A DNA stretch of 64,000 nt from Anaeromyxobacteraceae bacterium (GTDB lineage Bacteria; Myxococcota; Myxococcia; Myxococcales; Anaeromyxobacteraceae): the NCBI GenBank assembly GCA_035499295.1, contig DATJZG010000150.1, positions 8,675 through 72,674 on the forward strand. Reading direction: 5' to 3'. The notes under the pieces were generated by a model that was given only the letters and a program-made list of their open reading frames with translations, did no database searches and was not told the DNA's origin. The position numbers were made by a program, and so were the translations under genes. Below, one piece after another: positions 5,582-62,472 of this stretch. Within the stretch, counting starts at the first letter, position 1. Each line of letters begins with the position of its first letter.

Positions 5582-6331
5582 ATGAGCGGCATTCTCTCGA
5601 AGAAGAGTGCCCTGGTGCTCGGGGCCGGCGGGCTCGGCAGCCCCGCCTTGATGGTGCTGGCGAGTTCCGGGGTGGGGCGCATCGCCGTGGTGGACGGGAG
5701 CGCCCTCGAGACCTCGGACCTGAACCGCCAACCCCTCTTCACCGAGGCCGACCTGGGCGAGCGCCGAGGCGCGGCGGCCGCGCGCAGGCTGACCCGCCTC
5801 TTCCCTGCGGTGAACGTCGAGGTCGTTGACGGGTGCTTCGACGAGGCGAGCGCCGCCGGCCTGGCGCGGTCCGCGGACGTGCTCGTCGACGGCGCGGACG
5901 ACGCCCCCACCAAGTTCTTGGCGAGCGACGCCGCGCTCCTCGCCGGGAGGCCGCTCGTGCACGGGGGCGTGCTGCGCTACACAGCGCATCTCCTCACCGT
6001 GATTCCCGGGGTGACGGGGTGCCTGCGCTGCCTCTTCGAGACGCCGCCGCCGCCCGGCTCGGTGCCGGGCGTCGCCGAGGCGGGCGTGCTCGGGCCGCTG
6101 GCGGGCCTGGCAGGCGCCCTCATGGGAGCGGAGGCAGTGCGCCTCCTACTCGGCGAGCGGGGCGCCTACGCCGGTCGGCTCCTCGTCTACGAGGCCAGGC
6201 GGGCCCGCTCGCGCGCGGTGCCCGTTCGCATCCGCGACGGATGCCCGGCCTGCCGGGCCCAGCGGGAGGCGGTGGCCTCGGCAGGCGCCGCCGCACCCGG
6301 ACCCGGAACCCCGACCGCCGCAGGAGGCTAG
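5582..6331 (+). CDS. ThiF/MoeB/HesA-family E1-like adenylyltransferase
   Basis: VLGAGGLGSPALMVLASSGVGRIAVVD is a Rossmann GxGxxG motif. DLNRQ and DGADDAPTKF are present, as are two CxxC pairs (CLRC and CPAC). Confidence 0.8.
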   Translation: MSGILSKKSALVLGAGGLGSPALMVLASSGVGRIAVVDGSALETSDLNRQPLFTEADLGERRGAAAARRLTRLFPAVNVEVVDGCFDEASAAGLARSADVLVDGADDAPTKFLASDAALLAGRPLVHGGVLRYTAHLLTVIPGVTGCLRCLFETPPPPGSVPGVAEAGVLGPLAGLAGALMGAEAVRLLLGERGAYAGRLLVYEARRARSRAVPVRIRDGCPACRAQREAVASAGAAAPGPGTPTAAGG

Positions 6332-7160: not shown

Positions 7161-7952
7161 ATGGACGGGCTCAAAGTGATGCTGGCGGTGCACGTCTACG
7201 GCGACGTCTGCGGCGAGACCGTGCAGTGCCTCGTGTCGGAGCTGCGGCGCGAGGAGCGCGACCTGCGCTGGGACGTCGTCTTCCCGGCGAGCGACGCCCT
7301 GGTCTCGCGCCTGCGCTCCGAGATCGTCACCCGCGCCATCCAGGGTGGGCACGACGTCCTCGTCTGGCTCGACCACGACATGGTCTGGGCCCCCGGCGAC
7401 CTGGCCGGGCTGGTGAAGCGGTGCGCCGAGGTGAAGGGCGTGGTCGGAGGCCTCATCCCCTTCCGCGCGGAGTGGATGTTCGGGCGCGGCTTTCCCTGGC
7501 GGCCGGCGCCCGGGACCCGGGTGGCCGACGTCCAGCTCGGCCAGGACCGGCTGGTGCCGGCCGAGAAGGTCGGCGGCGGCTTCGTCGCCTTCTGGGTGCC
7601 GGCGCTGGCGCGCATGGTGGAGGCGCTCGAGAAGAGCCCGGATCCCGCCCTCAAGGTGAGCCGGTGCCGGTCGGCGGTGGAAGGGTTCTTCTGGGACGTG
7701 TGCCGCCCGGTGGCCGTCCCGTACGGCCCGGGCGAGGAGTGGCAGAACTACCTCTCGGAGGACTGGGCGCTCCTCATGCGCCTCGCGGCCTGCGAGGTGA
7801 AGGTGTTCGCCTGGACGAAGCCGCTCATCCGCCACGTCGGCCGCAAGGCCTACAGCGTGGCCGACGCGCTCGGGATCGTCGGCCCGGCGGACGACATCGA
7901 GGCCCATGTCCGCAGCACCCCCGGCGTCGTCGGGCCCTGGACGCCGGGCTAG
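7161..7952 (+). CDS. GT-A-fold glycosyltransferase-like protein (hypothetical)
   Basis: Internal ATG of the 6678-7952 frame. WLDHDM is DxD-like, and SEDWALLMRLAACEVKVFAWTKPLIRHVG resembles the ED..F..R....G.......HxG tail of GT2-like enzymes. Confidence 0.45.
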   Translation: MDGLKVMLAVHVYGDVCGETVQCLVSELRREERDLRWDVVFPASDALVSRLRSEIVTRAIQGGHDVLVWLDHDMVWAPGDLAGLVKRCAEVKGVVGGLIPFRAEWMFGRGFPWRPAPGTRVADVQLGQDRLVPAEKVGGGFVAFWVPALARMVEALEKSPDPALKVSRCRSAVEGFFWDVCRPVAVPYGPGEEWQNYLSEDWALLMRLAACEVKVFAWTKPLIRHVGRKAYSVADALGIVGPADDIEAHVRSTPGVVGPWTPG

Positions 7953-7970
7953 GTCAAGGGAGACGGATCG

Positions 7971-8498
7971 ATGGCGAAGGCGAAGCGAGGAGACACGGTG
8001 AAGCTGCACTACACCGGCAGGCTGACCGATGGAACGGTCTTCGACTCGACCGAGGACGCGGGAGCGCGGGTGTGGGACGGCTTCCGGGGCAAGGGAGTGT
8101 CCTTCGGGCCGGCGCAGCTCGTCATCGGGGCGGGCGAGATGCCCCCGGACTTCGAGGAGGCGCTCGTCGGCCTCGAGCCCGGAGAACAGGTCACCGTCCA
8201 CATCCCGGCCGAGCGGGCCTTCGGCGGGCGGGACGAGTCGCGCGTCACGGTCATCCCCATCGACGACTTCACCCCGCGGGAGCCGGGGCTCGAACGCTTC
8301 CGGGTCGCGGAAGGAAGGCATCGGCCCAACAACTTCGATCCCAAGGTCGGGGACGTCTGGGACGTGACGGCTCCGGACGGCTCCGCCTTTCGCGCGCGCG
8401 TGATCGCGAAGACGAAGGAATCCATCACCCTCGACGCCAACCACCCGCTGGCGGGGCAGGACGTCGTCTTCGACATCCGGCTGGTCGAGGTCGCGTAG
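7971..8498 (+). CDS. slyD: FKBP-type peptidyl-prolyl cis-trans isomerase (SlyD/SlpA-like)
   Basis: GDTVKLHYTGRLTDGTVFDST...GPAQLVIGAGEMPPDFEEALVGLEPGE..., then NHPLAGQDVVFDIRLVEV. Confidence 0.85.
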   Translation: MAKAKRGDTVKLHYTGRLTDGTVFDSTEDAGARVWDGFRGKGVSFGPAQLVIGAGEMPPDFEEALVGLEPGEQVTVHIPAERAFGGRDESRVTVIPIDDFTPREPGLERFRVAEGRHRPNNFDPKVGDVWDVTAPDGSAFRARVIAKTKESITLDANHPLAGQDVVFDIRLVEVA

Positions 8499-40379: not shown

Positions 40380-40453
40380 CGGGGCGTAGCGCAGCCTGGT
40401 AGCGCGCCTGCCTTGGGCGCAGGAGGTCGCGGGTCCAAATCCCGCCGCCCCGA
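40380..40453 (+). tRNA. tRNA-Pro (anticodon TGG)
   Basis: Hand-folded cloverleaf. Acceptor is CGGGGCG/CGCCCCG, D arm GCGC/GCGC, anticodon stem CCTGC/GCAGG with loop CTTGGGC, and T arm GCGGG-TCCAAAT-CCCGC. No encoded CCA. Confidence 0.9.
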
Positions 40454-40526
40454 CTCTTTGACATGTGGATCGGATGGACGGGGCGGACGAGGGCCCCGGG
40501 GCAAGTGGTACAACGACATCGGCTCT

Positions 40527-40600
40527 GCGCCCGTAGCTCAGCTGGATAGAGCAGCGGCCTTCTAAGCCGCGGGTCGGGGGTTCGACTCCCTCCGGGCGCG
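40527..40600 (+). tRNA. tRNA-Arg (anticodon TCT)
   Basis: Acceptor is GCGCCCG/CGGGCGC, anticodon stem GCGGC/GCCGC with loop CTTCTAA, and T arm GGGGG-TTCGACT-CCCTC. Confidence 0.9.
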
Positions 40601-40629
40601 CTCCCTAGGAGGGGCCTCGAAAGAAATGT

Positions 40630-40703
40630 GGTGAGTGTAGCTCAATCGGTAGAGCACTGGACTGTGGATCCGGGGGTTAAGGGTTCGAGCCCCTTCACTC
40701 ACC
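40630..40703 (+). tRNA. tRNA-His (anticodon GTG) with encoded G-1
   Basis: An extra 5' G precedes the acceptor GTGAGTG/CACTCAC and can pair with discriminator C. The anticodon loop is CTGTGGA and the T arm is AAGGG-TTCGAGC-CCCTT. Confidence 0.9.
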
Positions 40704-40740
40704 CACCTCATTCACGAACCGAGAAAGAGAGACGACGTTC

Positions 40741-40814
40741 GCGCCCGTAGCTCAGTTGGATAGAGCGTCGGCCTTCGAAGCCGCAGGTCGGGGGTTCGAT
40801 TCCCTCCGGGCGCG
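40741..40814 (+). tRNA. tRNA-Arg (anticodon TCG)
   Basis: The acceptor and T-stem arms match the Arg-TCT gene. The anticodon loop is CTTCGAA. Confidence 0.9.
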
Positions 40815-40852
40815 CTCCACCCTCGAAGGAGGAAAAAGGCGAGGAACGGCCG

Positions 40853-40881
40853 TTGACAAGGCGCGCTTCGCGCTGTTAGAT
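40853..40881 (+). promoter_or_regulatory. sigma70-like promoter TTGACA-N17-TTAGAT upstream of tRNA-Lys
   Basis: Hexamers at 40853-40858 and 40876-40881, 26 nt before the tRNA-Lys 5' end. Confidence 0.4.
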
Positions 40882-40906
40882 CCGCCGCCTTTCGGCCATC
40901 CCATCC

Positions 40907-40982
40907 GGGCGCATAGCTCAACTGGCAGAGCAATGGACTCTTAATCCATAGGTTGAAGGTTCGATTCCTTCTGCGCTCACCA
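40907..40982 (+). tRNA. tRNA-Lys (anticodon CTT), CCA encoded
   Basis: Acceptor is GGGCGCA/TGCGCTC (one G-U pair), anticodon stem ATGGA/TCCAT with loop CTCTTAA, and T arm GAAGG-TTCGATT-CCTTC. It ends in ACCA. Confidence 0.9.
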
Positions 40983-58529: not shown

Positions 58530-58952
58530 CTACCCCTTCTTCCCGCCCTGGATGACGCCGAAGCGCGGCCGCTTGCGCTCCGGCGGGCGGAGCTCGCCCG
58601 CCACCACCGACGGCCAGGGGAAGGCGCAGTCGACCCGCGTGCCGCGGAAGGTGAGGTTGCAGCGGATGCCCCACTCGTCGAGCGAGAGGTGCGGCGTGTC
58701 GCGCCCGGCGACGAGGTTGAGCCGGACGAGCTCCTCCCCGCGCAGGAACTCGGGGAGCTCCACCCCCGGCACGGCCGGCGCGACCAGCACCCACTCGACG
58801 GCGGAGGCCTTGCGGCAGGCGTCGAGCATCTCCGGGTGGCGCCCCTCGAGCGCGAGCGCGTGGAGGGCCTCGCCGCCCCAGCGCGGGCACTCGGGGGTGC
58901 AGGCCTCCTCGGGGGGATGGGCGTGGGGGGCGTCCACGGCCGCCTTGTACAA
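58530..58952 (-). CDS. SspB-like (ClpXP adaptor family) protein
   Basis: VELPEFLRGEELVRLNLVAGRDTPHLSLDEWGIRCNLTFRGTRVDCAFPWPSVVA parallels the E. coli SspB core (VQVP.EY..DG.IVLNIS..AV..L.L....V.F.ARF.G....V.VP..AV.A). The basic C-terminal tail RPRFGVIQGGKKG resembles a ClpX-binding tail. It starts 48 nt after the TIR gene stop. Confidence 0.5.
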   Translation of the reverse strand: MYKAAVDAPHAHPPEEACTPECPRWGGEALHALALEGRHPEMLDACRKASAVEWVLVAPAVPGVELPEFLRGEELVRLNLVAGRDTPHLSLDEWGIRCNLTFRGTRVDCAFPWPSVVAGELRPPERKRPRFGVIQGGKKG

Positions 58953-58999
58953 CGAAAGCGCCTCCCCGGGCAGCGGGGGAGGGCGGCGGCCGAGGGCGG

Positions 59000-60355
59000 T
59001 TACTCGGGGGCGAGGACGAGCTGGGTCTGCGCCTTGAAGGTGGGCTCGTGCTTAGAGTTGTCCGACCCGCCGGCGCGCCCGAACTCGAGGTCGAGGGTGA
59101 CGCTCGGCGGCGGCTTCGAGAGCGCCAGGGTGCCGGAGATGCGGACGTAGGCCATGCCGTCCCCGGCCTGGGCGCTGCGCACCCCCTCGAAGAAGACCTG
59201 GTCGGCGTCGCGCACGGCGCGCACCGTCATGGGGAAGAAGCCGGGGGCCTGGTTCGCCGGGGCGAAGGTGAGGTGCGCGCCGTCGAGGACCCAGCGGGCG
59301 CTTCCCACGAGCTCGCGCCCCTTCTCCTTGGCGTCGGGGTTGCCGAGGTACTGCTGGAAGGAGACGACGCTCCGGGTGGCAAAGCTGGCGCGCTCGGGGC
59401 CCGCCTTCTGGGCCGGCTCGGGGGCGACCGCCCCCGAGGCCGCGACGGCGCTCGCGGACGGCGAGTCCCGGGCGGTCGACGGGGGCGCCGCCGGGGAGGG
59501 CCGCTCGGCCCTCCGGGCGGGGCTCTTCGCGACCGCGACCGCGGCCGGGGGAGGGGCGGGAGGGGCGGCCGAGAGCGCCTTCTGCGGGGGCGCCGCGGGC
59601 GCCGGGCCGGCGCGCGGGGGAGGGGAGGCCGGCGGCGCCGCCGGCGGCGGTCGCTCCGGGGGCGCCGCCGCGGCGGCCCCGGCCTCGCCGCCCGCGTGCG
59701 AGGCCGGATGGCCCTCGCCGCTGCGCGTCGCGCTCGGGCGCCGCAGGAGGGCGAAGGTCGCCCCAGCGACGGCGAGGAGGAGCGCCGCGAGGAGGATCCC
59801 GCGGAGCCCCACCCGGCGCGCCGCCCCTCCCGGCAGGCGGCGCCGGAGCGTGTCGACGAGGAGCGAGACGTTGTAGTCCCAGTCCTGCTCGGTGAGCTGG
59901 AGGCACTGGCGGTGGAGGAGGCCCAGGAGCGCCGGCGGGAGGTCTTCCTCGGAGGGCAGGGTGGCCCCGCCCACCAGGACCGGGACGACGAGCACGTCCT
60001 GGCGCTTGAGCGCGGTCGCGATCTCGAGCGAGACCACGTCGCGAGGGTCCTTCAAGCGTCGGCGCCCGGAGGCGTCGGCGATGGTGGCCCAGTTCCTCCC
60101 GATGAGGACGAGCACCACCCGGCAGCTCCCCACCGTGCGCTCGATCTCCTCCATGTAGTTCACGCCCGGCTCGAGCCCCTTCACGTCCATGAAGACCTGG
60201 CGGGGAAAGGCCTGCTCGAGCGCGTAGAGGAGCGCCCGGGCCTGCCCGCCGCTGTCCTCGCGCCGGTAGTTGATGAAGACGGCGCGCCCGGAGCGCGAGC
60301 GGGCGCGCGAGGGCGCCGCCGCCGGCCGCGCCGCCTCCCCGGTGGGAGCGCTCAT
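59000..60355 (-). CDS. TIR-domain membrane protein: N-terminal TIR - single TM - Pro/Ala-rich linker - roughly 130-aa extracytoplasmic domain
   Basis: The ATG at 60355 overlaps the upstream stop (ATGA). The TIR_2-type pattern is RAVFINYRREDSGGQARALLYALE..FPRQVFMDV..LEPGVNYMEEIERTVGSCRVVLVLIG.NW...........DVVSLEIATAL....VLVVPVLV. The TM segment is GILLAALLLAVAGATFALL. A PA-rich tract follows (PPERPPPAAPPASPPP...) and then a beta-rich C-terminal domain. Confidence 0.8.
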   Translation of the reverse strand: MSAPTGEAARPAAAPSRARSRSGRAVFINYRREDSGGQARALLYALEQAFPRQVFMDVKGLEPGVNYMEEIERTVGSCRVVLVLIGRNWATIADASGRRRLKDPRDVVSLEIATALKRQDVLVVPVLVGGATLPSEEDLPPALLGLLHRQCLQLTEQDWDYNVSLLVDTLRRRLPGGAARRVGLRGILLAALLLAVAGATFALLRRPSATRSGEGHPASHAGGEAGAAAAAPPERPPPAAPPASPPPRAGPAPAAPPQKALSAAPPAPPPAAVAVAKSPARRAERPSPAAPPSTARDSPSASAVAASGAVAPEPAQKAGPERASFATRSVVSFQQYLGNPDAKEKGRELVGSARWVLDGAHLTFAPANQAPGFFPMTVRAVRDADQVFFEGVRSAQAGDGMAYVRISGTLALSKPPPSVTLDLEFGRAGGSDNSKHEPTFKAQTQLVLAPE

Positions 60356-60666
60356 CGCTCTCCGTCCTCCCCACCCGGACCGAGGATGCGGAACCCGAGC
60401 GCGCACAGGGCCTTCAGGCTCTCGAGGACGGTGGCCCGGTCGTACGCCTTCTCCTCCTCCGGGAGCTCTTCGTAGGGGACGAGGCTCGGGTGCAGCTTGC
60501 GCTCCTCGTCGCGGCGCGGGCCGAGGCGCCACCCCTCGGCGAGCCGGCCCCGGGCCCAGACCTCGTGGGCGTTGCGGGCGAGCTTCTCGCCCACCCGCGC
60601 CACCTCTTCCGGGAGCTTCACGGCCTTCGTGTCGATGGGGTTCGGGCGGTAAGGGGCGGCCGGCAT
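60352..60666 (-). CDS. Stand-alone ryanodine-receptor (RyR) repeat domain protein, 104 aa
   Basis: ATG at 60666 after AGGGAG. YRPNPIDTKAVKLPEEVARVGEKLARNAHEVWARGRLAEGWRLGPRRDEERKLHPSLVPYEELPEEEKAYDRATVLESLKALCALGFRI matches the RyR repeat pattern as I remember it (..P.P.D.s.v.Lp.....l...LAEN.HnvWA..R...GW.YG...D...k.hP.LVPy..L.e.EK.y.r......lk.L.alGy.i). Confidence 0.8.
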   Translation of the reverse strand: MPAAPYRPNPIDTKAVKLPEEVARVGEKLARNAHEVWARGRLAEGWRLGPRRDEERKLHPSLVPYEELPEEEKAYDRATVLESLKALCALGFRILGPGGEDGER

Positions 60667-60780
60667 GGATCGCTCCCTATTCTGATAGCGGGCGGCCCGC
60701 CGCCGGCAAGACCCGAGGCGCGGGACGCCCGGGCCCTGGCACTGCGCGGCAAGGGGAACCCATCTGGGCGCGCGCCGGCG

Positions 60781-60807
60781 TTGACGGATACACCCAGCGG
60801 ATATAAG
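60781..60807 (+). promoter_or_regulatory. sigma70-like promoter TTGACG-N15-TATAAG upstream of the OMP/SLATT pair
   Basis: Hexamers at 60781-60786 and 60802-60807. The spacer is short (15 nt, or 16 if the -35 is read as GTTGAC). The ATG at 60833 is preceded by GGGAGGGA. Confidence 0.35.
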
Positions 60808-60832
60808 GCAGACCTCTAACCCGGGAGGGACC

Positions 60833-61555
60833 ATGAGAAGGGTCGTCGCAGCGGTCGCGTTTCTCGGTGCGCTCGCCCCGGCCGTGCCCGCCGGGGCGCA
60901 GGAGGGCGTCCAGCCGTTCCTCACCCCGGCTCCGCCCGGGCCGCCCGAGAGCGGGGTCTCGATCGGGGTGAGCGTCGGCTACAGCGTGCCCATGGGGTCG
61001 GCCGTCGGGGCGCCCACCGGCGGCCTCGCCGCCACCTCGTTCACCGACATCTACAGCGGCGCGGTCCCCCTGCAGCTCGACCTGGGCTGGCGCTTCGGCC
61101 CCAGCCTCTACCTCGGGGCCTACTTCGAGTACGCGTTCGCGTTCGTCGCCGCCGCGCAGAACTGCAACAACGGCACGACCTGCTCGGGCGGCGACATGCA
61201 CTTCGGCATCGACTTCGTCTACACCTTCATCCCCCGGGCGGTGTTCGCGCCCTACGTGGGCTTCGGGGTGGGGTACGAGATCGCCACCCTGAGCGCGAGC
61301 AACTCGGGCCAGTCCATCAGCGCGACCTACGACGGCTTCGAGTTCGCCCGCTTCATCGTCGGGGGGGACTTCCGCGTCGGCAGCGCCTTCCGGGTGGGCC
61401 CCTTCCTCAACTTCTCGCTCGGCCAGTTCACCAACATGAGCACGCCCTTCAACTCGAACGGCGCGCTCGCCGGCACCAACCAGTCGGTCAGCATCGCCAA
61501 CAAGGCCTTGCACGAATGGCTGCAGTTCGGGATCAAGGGGACGGTCGACCTCTGA
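60833..61555 (+). CDS. Small beta-barrel outer-membrane protein
   Basis: Signal peptide is MRRVVAAVAFLGALAPAVPAGAQ. The sequence has alternating-hydrophobic strands (LQLDLGWRF, LYLGAYFEYAF, HFGIDFVYTF, APYVGFGVGYE, WLQFGIKGTVDL). Confidence 0.65.
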   Translation: MRRVVAAVAFLGALAPAVPAGAQEGVQPFLTPAPPGPPESGVSIGVSVGYSVPMGSAVGAPTGGLAATSFTDIYSGAVPLQLDLGWRFGPSLYLGAYFEYAFAFVAAAQNCNNGTTCSGGDMHFGIDFVYTFIPRAVFAPYVGFGVGYEIATLSASNSGQSISATYDGFEFARFIVGGDFRVGSAFRVGPFLNFSLGQFTNMSTPFNSNGALAGTNQSVSIANKALHEWLQFGIKGTVDL

Positions 61556-62472
61556 TCGAGGGGGAGCGCTCCCGGCCCGCTTCGTTCGTCGACTACCCCG
61601 GCGTCTACCGGGCCGCGGACGCCGCCGCCGTCGCCGTCCGCCGGCAGCACTTCGCCGCCGAGGCGGTGCAGCTGCTCCTCAACCCGGTGGCCGCCGGGCT
61701 GGTGCTCCTCTCGGCCACCGCGCTCCTGCGCCTCTCCTACGCGGTCCTCACCGCGGTCTCCACCACCATGCTCGTCATCGTGCTCTGGTTCGTGCGCGCG
61801 GCGCGCTGGCAGAAGCTCTGGTACGAGTGCCGCAGCGCCGCCGAGGACGTGAAGCGGCTCACCTGGCGCTACATGATGGCGCTCGAGCCCTTCCCCCCGG
61901 GCATGCTCACCCCCGACGCTCCCTTCGTGAAGGCCCTCGACGCGGTCCTGCGCGCCCACCCCGAGATCCGGGAGATGCTGGGCCAGCGCGCCGACTCGCT
62001 CACGCCGCCGGTGACCGCCGGGATGCGGCGGGTGCGAAAGGGCTCCTTCGAGGAGCGGGCCGACTTCTACCTCGAGGCGCGGGTGGAGCCGGAGCTCGCC
62101 TGGTACGCCGCCAAGGCCCGCCGCCACGCCGCCCTCGACCGGCGCTGGTTCGCCGGCCTGGTCACGGTGCAGGTGGCGGCGGTGCTCTCGGCCATCTGGC
62201 TGGCGGTGCGGATCGGGGCGAACCCGGGGCCCGCCACCGCCGCCGAGAGCGCCGTGCCGCTCCTCGCCGCGCTCGGCTCGGCGGTGATGGGCTGGCAGCG
62301 CTCCAAGCGCTTCGCCGACCTGTCGGGGGCCTACGCCGGCACGGCGCACGCGCTCGCCGGGCTCGTGTCCGCCCGCCCTCCGGTCTCCGACGAGGAGGCG
62401 CAGCGGGAGTGGATCGAGGCGGTGGAGGCGGCGCTCGCGAGCGAGCACGAGGCCTGGCGCCTCATGATGTGA
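61516..62472 (+). CDS. Two-module SLATT/DUF4231-like membrane protein
   Basis: The only ATG in frame is at 61516 and overlaps the OMP gene by 40 nt. Module 1 is A.R.QHFAAEAVQLLLN - 2 TM - RWQKLWYECRSAAEDVKRLTWRYMM. Module 2 is FYLEARVEPELAWYAAKARRHAALDRRW - 2 TM - SKRFADLSGAYAGTAHALAGL. Both match my recollection of the DUF4231/SLATT pattern (Y....i..Q..WY..ka......). Confidence 0.55.
   Translation: MAAVRDQGDGRPLIEGERSRPASFVDYPGVYRAADAAAVAVRRQHFAAEAVQLLLNPVAAGLVLLSATALLRLSYAVLTAVSTTMLVIVLWFVRAARWQKLWYECRSAAEDVKRLTWRYMMALEPFPPGMLTPDAPFVKALDAVLRAHPEIREMLGQRADSLTPPVTAGMRRVRKGSFEERADFYLEARVEPELAWYAAKARRHAALDRRWFAGLVTVQVAAVLSAIWLAVRIGANPGPATAAESAVPLLAALGSAVMGWQRSKRFADLSGAYAGTAHALAGLVSARPPVSDEEAQREWIEAVEAALASEHEAWRLMM

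Follow-up and report, generated by a model that had tools for sequence, protein, structure and literature searches.

A conserved RyR-TIR-OMP-SLATT gene unit in a soil myxobacterium as a candidate receptor-type, Thoeris-VII-like signalling system

We found that a soil myxobacterium locus within the window (the whole 64,000-nt stretch of DNA analysed) holds a four-gene unit encoding an RyR-domain protein, a TIR protein, an OMP and a double-SLATT protein (Table 1), to which we give an even chance of being a nucleotide-signalling system of receptor type, similar to Thoeris VII and including its own RyR-domain signal binder. The same four genes occur in the same divergent layout with different flanks in loci L003, L004 and L009, supporting the view that they behave as one unit and that the two divergent halves, proposed in the original prediction to form one circuit, are co-inherited. 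Upon checking the sequence, we found every feature named in that prediction in place, including the overlap of the RyR stop with the TIR start (ATGA on the coding strand at 60352-60355, TCAT on the + strand), the 166-bp divergent spacing and the 40-nt OMP/SLATT overlap. The RyR/TIR overlap of 4 nt is identical in L003, L004, L005 and L009. The divergent region presumably contains control elements common to both units; a motif scan called no sigma-70 consensus in it. By eye only, a TTGACG-15 nt-TATAAG motif is seen ~25 nt ahead of the OMP start codon (ATG).

Table 1. Coordinates of genes, domains and sites of the locus within the window
Feature	Position	Strand	Details
SspB-like gene	58530-58952	-	140 aa, TTG start; 47 nt past TIR stop
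Terminator-like hairpin, T-rich tail	58961-58982	-	between TIR stop and SspB-like start
TIR gene	59000-60355	-	451 aa; TIR_2 E 2.6e-10, exceeds Pfam cutoff
C-terminal extracytoplasmic sensor domain (predicted), aa 323-451	59003-59389	-	AF2 pLDDT 91.9
Ala/Pro-rich linker, 118 aa	59390-59743	-	31% Ala, 25% Pro by composition
Single predicted TM helix, aa 184-204	59744-59806	-	hydropathy analysis; Arg-rich stretch before helix
TIR domain, aa 24-170	59846-60286	-	catalytic Glu E111 (by alignment) encoded at 60023-60025
RyR gene	60352-60666	-	104 aa; whole protein a single PF02026 repeat, Pfam E 2.1e-33
RyR ligand-site residues	H34 60565-60567; W37 60556-60558; H59 60490-60492; D76 60439-60441	-	conserved; also R52
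Divergent intergenic region	60667-60832		166 nt, between RyR-TIR unit and OMP-SLATT unit
OMP gene	60833-61555	+	240 aa; signal peptide ends ...PAGA/QE
SLATT gene	61516-62472	+	318 aa; 40-nt overlap with OMP gene
SLATT_3 of SLATT gene, aa 28-181	61597-62058	+	Pfam E 1.5e-25; NCBIfam 2.9e-33
SLATT_1 of SLATT gene, aa 185-314	62068-62457	+	Pfam E 3.7e-16; NCBIfam 2.8e-25

The RyR, TIR and double-SLATT assignments of the original prediction all reached HMM significance. Upon profile comparison, the RyR protein matches the RyR2 repeat 860-950 (3.6e-20) and B. thetaiotaomicron 3NRT (5e-29). Its ligand-site residues H34, W37, R52, H59 and D76 are invariant or near-invariant in alignment A1 and line up with those of Nepra gp73, a phage RyR Tad orthologue, and the spacing of H34/W37/H59/D76 (+3, +25, +42) equals that of RyDEP H75/W78/H100/D117 (PMC13232231). 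In phages, proteins with this domain form dimers that bind 2'cADPR, 3'cADPR and cADPR or act on them as glycosidases (PMC13232231; 10.64898/2026.06.04.730250), with H, W, H and D as key residues; in the RyDEP pocket, one His and the Asp are catalytic, the Trp stacks on adenine and a His contacts phosphate (PMC13232231). Judged by this likeness, a small PF02026 protein with pocket residues at identical spacing, the window RyR would be expected to bind cADPR-type nucleotides. Unlike the phage RyDEP and RyR Tad, it lies on a host chromosome and is translationally coupled to its presumed TIR target, and it is much closer to animal RyR repeats than to the phage proteins, with which it shares ~30-55% identity over the core.

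The closest PDB relatives of the TIR domain are SARM1 TIR domains (E ~2e-4). Its 'SLEIATAL' aligns with SARM1 'HKEIVTAL', the Glu of which we take to be the catalytic E642; by this alignment the window TIR keeps the catalytic Glu as E111, and a Glu is invariant across all 31 RyR-linked TIR ORFs of the census described below. The same hydropathy scan placed a TM helix at the same position in the window-type relative L009 and found the TIR-then-TM layout in 12 of the 13 loci that combine RyR, TIR and SLATT. AF2 predicts the C-terminal domain to be a small beta-barrel of eight strands plus a single helix, and fold comparison with the PDB and with viral proteins gave nothing significant (top match avidin family, E 0.02, TM 0.44). 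Its family is very narrow; the domain also forms the C-terminus of two Ser/Thr kinases, following a TM helix and Pro/Ala linker, and in terms of domain architecture it behaves as a swappable extracytoplasmic sensor common to the TIR protein and receptor kinases. By architectural analogy, animal Toll-like receptors and bacterial PknB-type receptor kinases likewise join an extracytoplasmic sensor, a single TM and a cytoplasmic signalling head; the sensor cassette found here occurs with TIR and with Ser/Thr kinase heads alike. Relative to TLRs, however, the orientation is reversed, the window TIR being N-terminal and a predicted enzyme rather than an adaptor scaffold, and the sensor fold is unrelated to LRR or PASTA domains.

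On the divergent side, Pfam OMP_b-brl is weak on the window OMP (E 0.014), and many of its homologues carry PF13505. AF2 folds it as an outer-membrane barrel of eight strands (pLDDT 84), which Foldseek matches to OmpA-TM, NspA, OmpW and Ail (E 4e-6 to 1e-4), confirming the beta-barrel call, and the gene is kept beside SLATT in L001-L004, L008 and L009. Hydropathy places three TM helices of the double SLATT near aa 53-71, 75-93 and 213-231 and indicates a fourth, weaker one. The protein is homologous over its full length to a ~370-aa protein whose gene directly follows RyR in other phyla (hhalign probability 98%, E 1.7e-13, 288 columns).

The SspB-like gene had been counted as a fifth member, 48 nt beyond TIR; its strand and position hold, with a gap one nucleotide shorter. 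Its match to Pfam SspB is sub-threshold (E 0.054, 14 bits, cutoff 27), and its PDB profile matches are SspB only (E 0.15). The gene is present only in the window and L001/L002, and is absent from L004 and L009; in L003 a secreted protein unrelated to it takes its place. It is probably a neighbour rather than part of the module, and the sensor, TIR, RyR, SLATT and OMP grouping stands as four genes without it. The hairpin in front of it is suggestive only as a terminator, with one site found against 0.8 expected by chance.

The census covered 80 RyR loci in species-representative genomes of many phyla, with partners sought within 6 kb. A Pfam-confirmed TIR gene was found in 27 of the 80 loci, mostly adjacent to RyR; all 31 TIR ORFs there are Pfam-confirmed TIR_2, 27 share the strand of RyR and 22 lie within 1.3 kb of it (p = 6e-9 under a uniform distribution across 6 kb). 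Full-length homologues of the double SLATT occur in 24/80 loci, usually overlapping the RyR stop, commonly by 4 nt. All three partners occur together in 13/80 loci, spread over Myxococcota, Acidobacteriota and Gemmatimonadota and including gene orders other than that of the window. In Xylanibacter (L088) a TIR-Sel1 gene starts within the RyR gene, sharing 1 nt with it, and a Ruminococcaceae MAG (L043) encodes a single RyR-TIR fusion protein. RyR-TIR adjacency beyond close relatives and TIR/SLATT proximity to RyR in unrelated genomes are thus both borne out. Additionally, RyR-TIR pairs without SLATT exist, as do ~11 RyR-SLATT pairs with no TIR within 6 kb, at least four of them with full flanks, and one RyR-SLATT pair adjoins an IS200-type transposase. 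No TIR, SLATT or TPR-S was found nearby in 35/80 loci, indicating that RyR-family proteins are not confined to systems of this kind. At other loci RyR is paired with, or fused to, TPR-S/MAP3K_TRAF_bd, patatin, cyclases or TrkA_N channel regulators, often with an adjoining TIR gene, and multidomain forms include TrkA_N-RyR, AAA-RyR and RyR-TPR-S-cyclase.

The chromosomal context is housekeeping and not a defence island, in agreement with the original prediction: one flank is clpX-clpP-tig-GH3 and the other the cox cluster, with no mobile-element genes among the neighbours and no prophage genes near the module in the window. In related genomes the module is kept vertically at the same tig-GH3 site. 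PADLOC called no known system at the locus, only weak ThsB-like TIR matches. The locus resembles Thoeris type VII, a two-gene operon of a ThsB TIR and a ThsH SLATT effector with canonical cADPR as signal (bioRxiv 10.64898/2025.12.03.692087; this source and those on RyDEP and RyR Tad are 2025-26 preprints), in that a TIR with the catalytic Glu stands beside a SLATT-family membrane effector and a TIR-made ADPR-type nucleotide would be expected to activate a membrane-breaching SLATT. In contrast to type VII, the window has divergent units with two additional conserved genes (RyR and OMP), a membrane-anchored TIR with an extracytoplasmic sensor domain and a SLATT_3+SLATT_1 double module as effector, a comparison made by description with ThsB/ThsH, which are published there as IMG identifiers only.

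In the reading that we favour, the TIR protein would sit in the inner membrane with its NAD+-cleaving domain towards the cytoplasm, and the small beta-barrel sensor would be held in the periplasm by the long Ala/Pro linker. The sensor may detect an envelope event, with phage attachment or injection and other envelope damage as candidate triggers, possibly via the co-conserved 8-stranded outer-membrane barrel; the OMP-sensor contact is pure conjecture. Sensing would switch on the TIR, which would turn NAD+ into what we infer to be a cyclic ADP-ribose-type signal, and the 4-TM double SLATT would answer by permeabilising the inner membrane, leading to abortive infection or cell death; an anti-phage function and a sensing role for the OMP are likewise what we infer. 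The RyR protein, whose ratio to TIR the ATGA overlap would fix, would be the host counterpart of phage RyDEP and RyR Tad, with the TIR product bound in the same pocket. Most likely it would buffer or destroy basal signal, such that SLATT fires only at high TIR output and the system can be reset afterwards; a role as sensor subunit of the SLATT pore is less likely. Type III CRISPR ring nucleases, of host and viral kinds (Crn1-3 and AcrIII-1), are a functional analogy to such a RyR and not a homology. Viruses use that family to defeat second-messenger immunity, and hosts use it to limit or reset their own system, the host copy being, as for RyR, encoded beside or fused to the signalling system. 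Fold and chemistry are nevertheless unrelated, with cyclic oligoadenylate there and ADPR-derived signals here, and that the host RyR regulates signalling is put forward as a proposal.

Buffering has findings against it: RyR-SLATT pairs without TIR fit RyR as an effector partner equally well or better, and RyR in multidomain proteins looks less like a scavenger than like a ligand-binding domain with a regulatory role. Furthermore, RyDEP splits ribose-ribose O-glycosidic bonds (PMC13232231), so hydrolysis is not assured if the TIR makes canonical N1-cADPR, as type VII does. RyR might instead be a positive sensor: with the nucleotide made by TIR bound, its dimer would dock on the double SLATT, or let go of it, and the SLATT would open. 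RyR would then act as the ligand-binding subunit of a membrane channel, by analogy with Repeat12 on animal ryanodine receptors. We hold this role to be possible but doubtful. It counts RyR-SLATT as the commonest pairing, found also without nearby TIR and often with the RyR stop 4 nt into the SLATT start, and it draws on the terminal position of RyR on TrkA_N (channel-regulatory), AAA and cyclase proteins, where RyR would naturally serve as a sensor, and on the binding of cADPR by RyR Tad at <1 uM (10.64898/2026.06.04.730250). Type VII Thoeris, however, works with just TIR and SLATT, with a SLATT modelled to bind cADPR itself; all characterised stand-alone RyR-domain proteins inhibit signalling; and the window RyR is coupled to TIR, not to SLATT, while RyR-TIR pairs and the fusion occur without SLATT.

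The same chemistry of receptor TIR, nucleotide signal and SLATT could instead serve the physiology of this social soil bacterium rather than antiviral defence, in a circuit that senses the envelope or decides cell fate (for example in envelope stress, in recognising kin or contact, or in developmental lysis); we consider this unlikely. The housekeeping neighbours, free of mobile elements and known defence genes, and the vertical retention at tig-GH3 would suit such a circuit, as would a sensor cassette common to Ser/Thr receptor kinases, typical of myxobacterial signalling, and a periplasmic sensor with an OMP, suggesting an extracellular or envelope cue; yet every experimentally tested TIR+SLATT system is anti-phage, TIR signalling is the specific target of the RyR-domain proteins that phages carry, and the different contexts in L003 and L004, together with the transposase beside one RyR-SLATT pair, point to mobility. 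That RyR-TIR and OMP-SLATT are unrelated adjacent units, with RyR possibly a leftover phage anti-defence gene, is very improbable and already disfavoured: the divergent transcription would fit, as would distant OMP homologues without SLATT linkage and a distant TIR homologue (P0019) with neither RyR nor SLATT nearby, but the layout persists despite changed flanks, RyR, TIR and SLATT co-occur in three phyla in other orders, a RyR-TIR fusion is known, the RyR/TIR coupling is conserved and the neighbourhood is without prophage genes.

The partners at other RyR loci (TPR-S, patatin, cyclase and TrkA_N) are effector or sensor classes of Thoeris VIII and X and of Aravind-type TPR-S systems, the TPR-S partners resembling the ThsI TPR of type VIII (CMP hydrolase-TPR) and the TrkA_N/channel partners type X (ion channel). 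The window, in contrast, has none of these partners, and they indicate the breadth of RyR association rather than the identity of the window locus. The module had been put forward as a candidate undescribed one, which holds in part: its TIR+SLATT core is already known as Thoeris type VII (10.64898/2025.12.03.692087), and RyR-domain proteins are known in phages, whereas the searchable literature gave no description of an RyR partner encoded by the host, of a TIR of this receptor type or of the OMP in such a system.

We found that all five genes of the original prediction are present in the window in the geometry it described, within a region of ~75% G+C from an Anaeromyxobacteraceae MAG. The TGA of the RyR gene overlaps the ATG of the TIR gene (TCAT on the plus strand at 60352-60355), and the SspB-like ORF lies downstream of the TIR gene on the same strand, at a spacing of 47 nt as against the 48 nt predicted. 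The neighbours are of the housekeeping type, as had been proposed, with clpX-clpP-tig-GH3 flanking the module on one side and the cox cluster on the other. No sigma-70 consensus was found in a promoter scan, and a terminator scan returned one hairpin, followed by a T-rich tail, in the gap separating the TIR and SspB-like ORFs, one such site being the chance expectation. A cluster of five tRNA genes (Pro-TGG, Arg-TCT, His-GTG, Arg-TCG, Lys-CTT; 40380-40982, plus strand) lies ~17 kb away, without evident connection to the module.

Genes of the TIR-centred region and its SspB-like neighbour
Feature	Position	Strand	Description
RyR gene	60352-60666	-	104 aa; single RyR domain over entire length (PF02026, E 2.1e-33)
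TIR gene	59000-60355	-	451 aa; N-terminal TIR_2 (Pfam E 2.6e-10)
SspB-like ORF	58530-58952	-	140 aa; starts 47 nt after TIR ORF
OMP gene	60833-61555	+	240 aa; starts 166 nt upstream of RyR gene, opposite strand
SLATT gene	61516-62472	+	318 aa; 40-nt overlap with OMP gene

The extent of the inherited unit was examined on contigs encoding TIR homologues. In two of these loci, L003 (TIR 54% identical) and L004 (55%), we observe the order SLATT(-) OMP(-) | RyR(+) TIR(+) among wholly different flanking genes, with the RyR and TIR genes overlapping by 4 nt in both, and the same layout recurs in an Anaeromyxobacter MAG recovered by the RyR scan (L009). The four conserved genes form two divergent units, RyR-TIR and OMP-SLATT, whose predicted co-inheritance is upheld by these three loci; the TIR-SLATT association is kept in all three and in 12 further RyR-TIR-SLATT triads. 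The SspB-like gene behaves differently, following TIR only in the window and its nearest relative (L001/L002), while its position is occupied by an unrelated secreted 147-aa protein in L003 and by no equivalent gene in L004 and L009 when the neighbourhoods are compared. Of the predicted domain labels, RyR, TIR_2 and SLATT are significant in Pfam, whereas SspB is statistically weak (PF04386, E 0.054, 14 bits against a cutoff of 27), and although the ORF profile retrieved four PDB matches that were all SspB, these were non-significant (E 0.15-0.33). Because the SspB-like gene is kept only in the window and L001/L002, we conclude that the module consists of four genes and that this ORF is a neighbour, not the fifth member it had been taken for.

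Further from the window, a Terriglobia MAG (L006:129-2702) encodes a TIR homologue (33% identity, 76% coverage) of the same TIR-TM layout, convergent with two separate single-SLATT_1/DUF4231 genes in place of one double-SLATT gene, with 128 nt of upstream sequence available; the TIR-SLATT link therefore reaches another phylum. Neither RyR nor SLATT was found near a distant TIR homologue (P0019) or near distant OMP homologues (P0183, P0188); the linkage thus holds within the close family and the RyR-centred census only. The locus of another homologue (L008, protein P0017) was set aside as evidence, as it looks degraded or frameshifted, probably from long-read assembly.

Upon examining the RyR protein, we found that its PDB matches are RyR repeats and 3NRT, and that it is nearer to the animal RyR2 repeat 860-950 (E 3.6e-20) than to phage proteins, with which identity is ~30-55% and confined to the core. 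Two 2026 preprints have given the RyR domain a biochemical function in phage anti-Thoeris proteins (PMC13232231; 10.64898/2026.06.04.730250). In RyDEP, H75 and D117 form a catalytic dyad, W78 stacks on the adenine and H100 contacts the phosphates, and other phages have homologues that are nanomolar sponges (PMC13232231). RyR Tad, from a Pectobacterium phage, binds 3'cADPR at 43 nM and 2'cADPR and cADPR at <1 uM through H129/W132, K147/H154 and K170/D171 (10.64898/2026.06.04.730250). The window protein carries H34, W37, H59 and D76, invariant or near-invariant among 22 homologues, with a His, Trp (+3), His (+25), Asp (+42) spacing identical to that of RyDEP (H75/W78/H100/D117) and RyR Tad (H129/W132/H154/D171). 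These residues align with the RyR Tad orthologue Nepra gp73, with R52 replacing K147. The window protein thus shares PF02026, the fold and the pocket residues with the RyDEP/RyR Tad family but is host-encoded; a phage-encoded anti-defence protein was rejected as its identity, since the gene is chromosomal, flanked by housekeeping genes and translationally coupled to the TIR gene.

In the closest relative of the window (L001/L002; TIR 71% identical, same tig-GH3 flank), TIR, OMP and SLATT are intact and an intact RyR ORF is missing because its 5' coding part (aa 8-32, at L001:5703-5785 and the same coordinates in L002, corresponding to 60569-60646 of the window) is inverted and abuts the intact 3' part (aa 33-100). 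A genuine disruption, a phase-type inversion or an artefact of metagenome assembly could each account for this, and the two records probably share the same underlying data.

The closest solved relatives of the window TIR domain are the TIR domains of SARM1 (E about 2e-4). Its 'SLEIATAL' aligns with the SARM1 motif 'HKEIVTAL', placing E111 opposite the Glu that we take to be the catalytic E642, and one Glu is likewise invariant across the 31 RyR-linked TIR ORFs of the census described below, so that the Glu on which the proposed catalytic activity depends is retained. The TIR domain is followed by an Arg-rich stretch, a single TM helix (aa 184-204; TM predictions throughout are by simple hydropathy), a linker of 118 aa that is 56% Ala plus Pro, and ~130 C-terminal aa predicted to form a small 8-stranded barrel with one helix (pLDDT 91.9). 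Since TIR requires cytoplasmic NAD+, this barrel should be periplasmic. It has no significant structural relative in the PDB, and BFVD gave nothing; the best PDB fold matches are avidin/calycin-like barrels (E 0.02, TM 0.44), and function is therefore not transferable from relatives. The sequence family is tiny, with 11 representatives at E <= 1e-10 among 1.84 billion proteins, two of which are Ser/Thr protein kinases (P0194, 816 aa; P0197, 718 aa) in the order kinase, Pro/Ala linker, TM helix, Pro/Ala linker, barrel. A cassette swapped between kinase and TIR heads is the signature of a receptor input domain, and the rare barrel appears to amount to a sensor cassette common to both kinds of signalling head.

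On the other strand, the SLATT gene encodes SLATT_3 and SLATT_1 (Pfam 1.5e-25 and 3.7e-16; NCBIfam 2.9e-33 and 2.8e-25) with two TM-helix pairs by hydropathy. In Thoeris type VII, the effector role falls to a SLATT protein, ThsH, whose trigger is canonical cADPR, and cells carrying the system die on cADPR addition (10.64898/2025.12.03.692087). The 240-aa OMP has a weak OMP_b-brl match on its own sequence, with PF13505 found in its homologues. Its AF2 model, built with database homologues, is of a signal-peptide protein with 8 long strands forming an outer-membrane barrel (pLDDT 84) and matches OmpA-TM, NspA, OmpW and Ail (Foldseek, E 4e-6 to 1e-4, TMt up to 0.73), features of the small 8-stranded outer-membrane barrels (OmpA-TM/OmpW/Opa-like, PF13505), to which the modelled protein would belong. 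The 40-nt overlap between the two genes (61516-61555) is due to a 12-aa N-terminal SLATT extension that the window shares with L002 alone. The SLATT genes of L003 and L004 begin 4 nt before the OMP stop, and the equivalent window position is a CTG at 61552; the true start and the overlap length are therefore uncertain.

We used a RyR protein alignment to search GTDB genomes, one per species, and retained the best 80 loci (L009-L088) of at least 565 confirmed matches, a best-scoring subset whose percentages are therefore not those of the whole family; gene calls in these loci are our own and heuristic. The loci span Acidobacteriota, Planctomycetota, Bacteroidota, Bacillota, Chloroflexota, Cyanobacteriota and others, and most matches are stand-alone genes of ~95 aa. 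The commonest downstream or fused partner is a ~370-aa DUF4231/SLATT protein (19 loci), often with a 4-nt overlap with the RyR stop. The profile of this class matches the window-type SLATT, in a profile-profile comparison over 288 of 318 columns (98% probability, E 1.7e-13), and the two therefore belong to the same effector family along their full length. With a local TIR profile, 27 of the 80 loci were seen to contain TIR ORFs, 31 in total, all Pfam-confirmed as TIR_2. When their enrichment near RyR was assessed by a positional test, 22 lay within 1.3 kb of RyR (binomial p = 6e-9 relative to even placement across 6 kb); 27 were on the RyR strand. Coupling can be tighter still: in a Ruminococcaceae locus (L043) RyR (5-93) and TIR_2 (105-224, E 3.2e-20) are parts of one 512-aa protein, and in Xylanibacter ruminicola (L088) the RyR gene overlaps the start of a 1342-aa TIR-Sel1 gene by 1 nt. 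Triads of RyR, TIR and SLATT occur in 13 of the 80 loci, from Myxococcota, Acidobacteriota and Gemmatimonadota, in orders including TIR-RyR-SLATT, RyR-SLATT-TIR and divergent TIR | RyR-SLATT, and in 12 of the 13 a TM helix is predicted after the TIR domain, as in the window. The RyR-TIR and TIR/SLATT pairings that the original prediction proposed to look for thus recur together in three phyla. In a neighbour-joining tree of the RyR domains the contexts cluster, a result that we do not rely on because a 90-aa domain resolves weakly.

The remaining contexts are varied. RyR-SLATT pairs with no TIR within 6 kb were found in 11 loci, at least four with complete flanks, and no alternative signal generator was found among their neighbour genes. 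In one (L010) an IS200/Y1-type transposase gene (7765-8265) directly follows the pair, which hints that it can be mobile. RyR is also partnered by TPR-S/MAP3K_TRAF_bd modules, which either are fused to it together with a guanylate-cyclase domain or lie beside a patatin, and by TrkA_N channel regulators, an MscS channel and a NUDIX protein. For example, ~760-aa ORFs starting near position 6000 fuse RyR, TPR-S/MAP3K_TRAF_bd and a guanylate/adenylate-cyclase domain (L026, L027, L034, L041, L061, L069); this group, with L055 and L033, also includes a RyR-TPR-S protein and a TPR-S-patatin protein beside RyR, some members having TIR genes nearby, and TPR-S may be equivalent to the TPR for which the Thoeris type VIII preprint suggests a part in cADPR perception. 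In L016 and L028, RyR (about 5990-6290) lies between upstream TIR genes and a downstream TrkA_N (RCK) protein, which in L028 has a second RyR domain at its C-terminus, an arrangement resembling the TIR plus ion-channel layout of Thoeris type X. Tight coupling to RyR is also seen for the genes of a NUDIX-domain protein (L035:6285-7616), a BON-MscS mechanosensitive channel (L051:6285-7550) and a MoxR-like AAA protein that carries RyR at its C-terminus (L071:4914-7664). Two to four RyR domains or genes stand in tandem in L019, L025, L062, L071 and L087, echoing the paired repeats of animal RyRs. TIR, SLATT and TPR-S are all missing within 6 kb in 35 of the 80 loci, mostly from gut or rumen Bacteroidales and Clostridia, so the RyR family either extends beyond TIR systems or has partners encoded elsewhere; there (e.g. 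L045, L052, L056, L063, L075, L077, L085, L086) a RyR gene of ~96 aa is usually surrounded by ordinary metabolic genes.

Among known systems, the module compares best with Thoeris type VII, likeness being judged by domain and layout since the validated ThsB and ThsH are published as IMG gene identifiers (Table S2). Both have a TIR with a Glu at the putative catalytic position (E111 here) and a SLATT effector, which adjoins the TIR in type VII but is two genes away and divergent in the window; furthermore, type VII is a two-gene TIR-effector operon, whereas we find four conserved genes in two divergent units. A PADLOC scan of all five proteins (2023 release, which predates type VII) gave weak ThsB-like matches for TIR and none for the RyR, OMP, SLATT and SspB-like proteins. 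NCBIfam memberships in ThcB4 (28.7 bits against a cutoff of 220), GltJ and DnaX were discarded as partial-domain or low-complexity matches. The searchable literature yielded no description of host RyR-domain genes in TIR or SLATT operons and no paper combining the RyR domain with SLATT, DUF4231 or TPR-S, and the supplements of the TIR-discovery preprint have no PF02026/RyR entry. The claim of an undescribed module therefore stands, within that literature, for the RyR pairing, while the TIR-SLATT core matches the logic of type VII. Given that the logic matches, the two-gene definition fails, RyR is host-encoded and host RyR operons are undescribed in the literature searched, we class the module as a variant on type VII. 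What is new here, as far as that literature shows, would be a receptor-type TIR-SLATT system with an integral, predicted nucleotide-binding RyR partner and, in this lineage, an outer-membrane barrel.

We propose that an envelope-anchored TIR receptor would sense a periplasmic or outer-membrane cue, possibly reaching it through the co-inherited outer-membrane barrel, and would make an ADPR-derived cyclic nucleotide, to which the double SLATT would respond by breaching the inner membrane, while the RyR protein would bind the TIR-made nucleotide. What we suggest for these roles beyond domain identity draws on two or three preprints. For RyR we favour a role as buffer or terminator of the signal, because the stand-alone RyR proteins characterised to date all suppress signalling, type VII systems function with no RyR-type subunit, and the RyR-TIR coupling (overlap here, fusion in L043) fits a safety device made along with the enzyme. 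The situation would also parallel type III CRISPR, in which host and viral ring nucleases both exist. If the product is N1-linked cADPR, as in type VII, binding by RyR is more likely than cleavage, since RyDEP cleaves O-glycosidic ribose-ribose bonds.

Alternatively, RyR could be the ligand-sensing subunit of the SLATT pore, as RyR-SLATT pairs are plentiful, tightly coupled and present without a nearby TIR, and RyR is also found at the ends of channel, ATPase and cyclase proteins as a regulatory domain; against this stand the suppressive behaviour of stand-alone RyR proteins and the RyR-free type VII systems that favour a buffer or terminator. An extended version, which we consider improbable, would make RyR a cADPR-sensing gating subunit, a two-piece forerunner of the Repeat12 regulation of ryanodine-receptor channels, with a Toll-like-receptor-style TM TIR reading an outer-membrane or periplasmic event via a dedicated outer-membrane barrel; if true, this would be a trans-envelope innate-immune receptor pathway in bacteria. 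The module may also be physiological instead of anti-phage, a reading consistent with its housekeeping context and with a sensor cassette common to myxobacterial-type kinases, although the tested TIR plus SLATT systems are all defensive and phages carry RyR proteins that counter TIR signals.

No Thoeris-type system is known to us, and none emerged from our searches, in which the host encodes a factor that binds the system's own signal or removes it; RyR tied into TIR operons through gene overlap, and through fusion in one case, would supply such a host-side Thoeris regulator and would suggest an origin for the phage RyDEP and RyR Tad. The link between cADPR and the ryanodine receptor has long been debated. 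Host RyR proteins resemble animal RyR repeats far more closely than phage RyR proteins do, and this closeness, together with adjoining membrane-pore and channel partners, may make them the best bacterial model for that link. Additionally, a periplasmic cassette used by receptor kinases and a co-inherited outer-membrane barrel point to sensing at the cell envelope instead of in the cytoplasm, which for TIR immunity would be a new kind of input, and the recurring TIR-RyR-SLATT triads of Acidobacteriota, Gemmatimonadota and Myxococcota offer many systems open to experiment.
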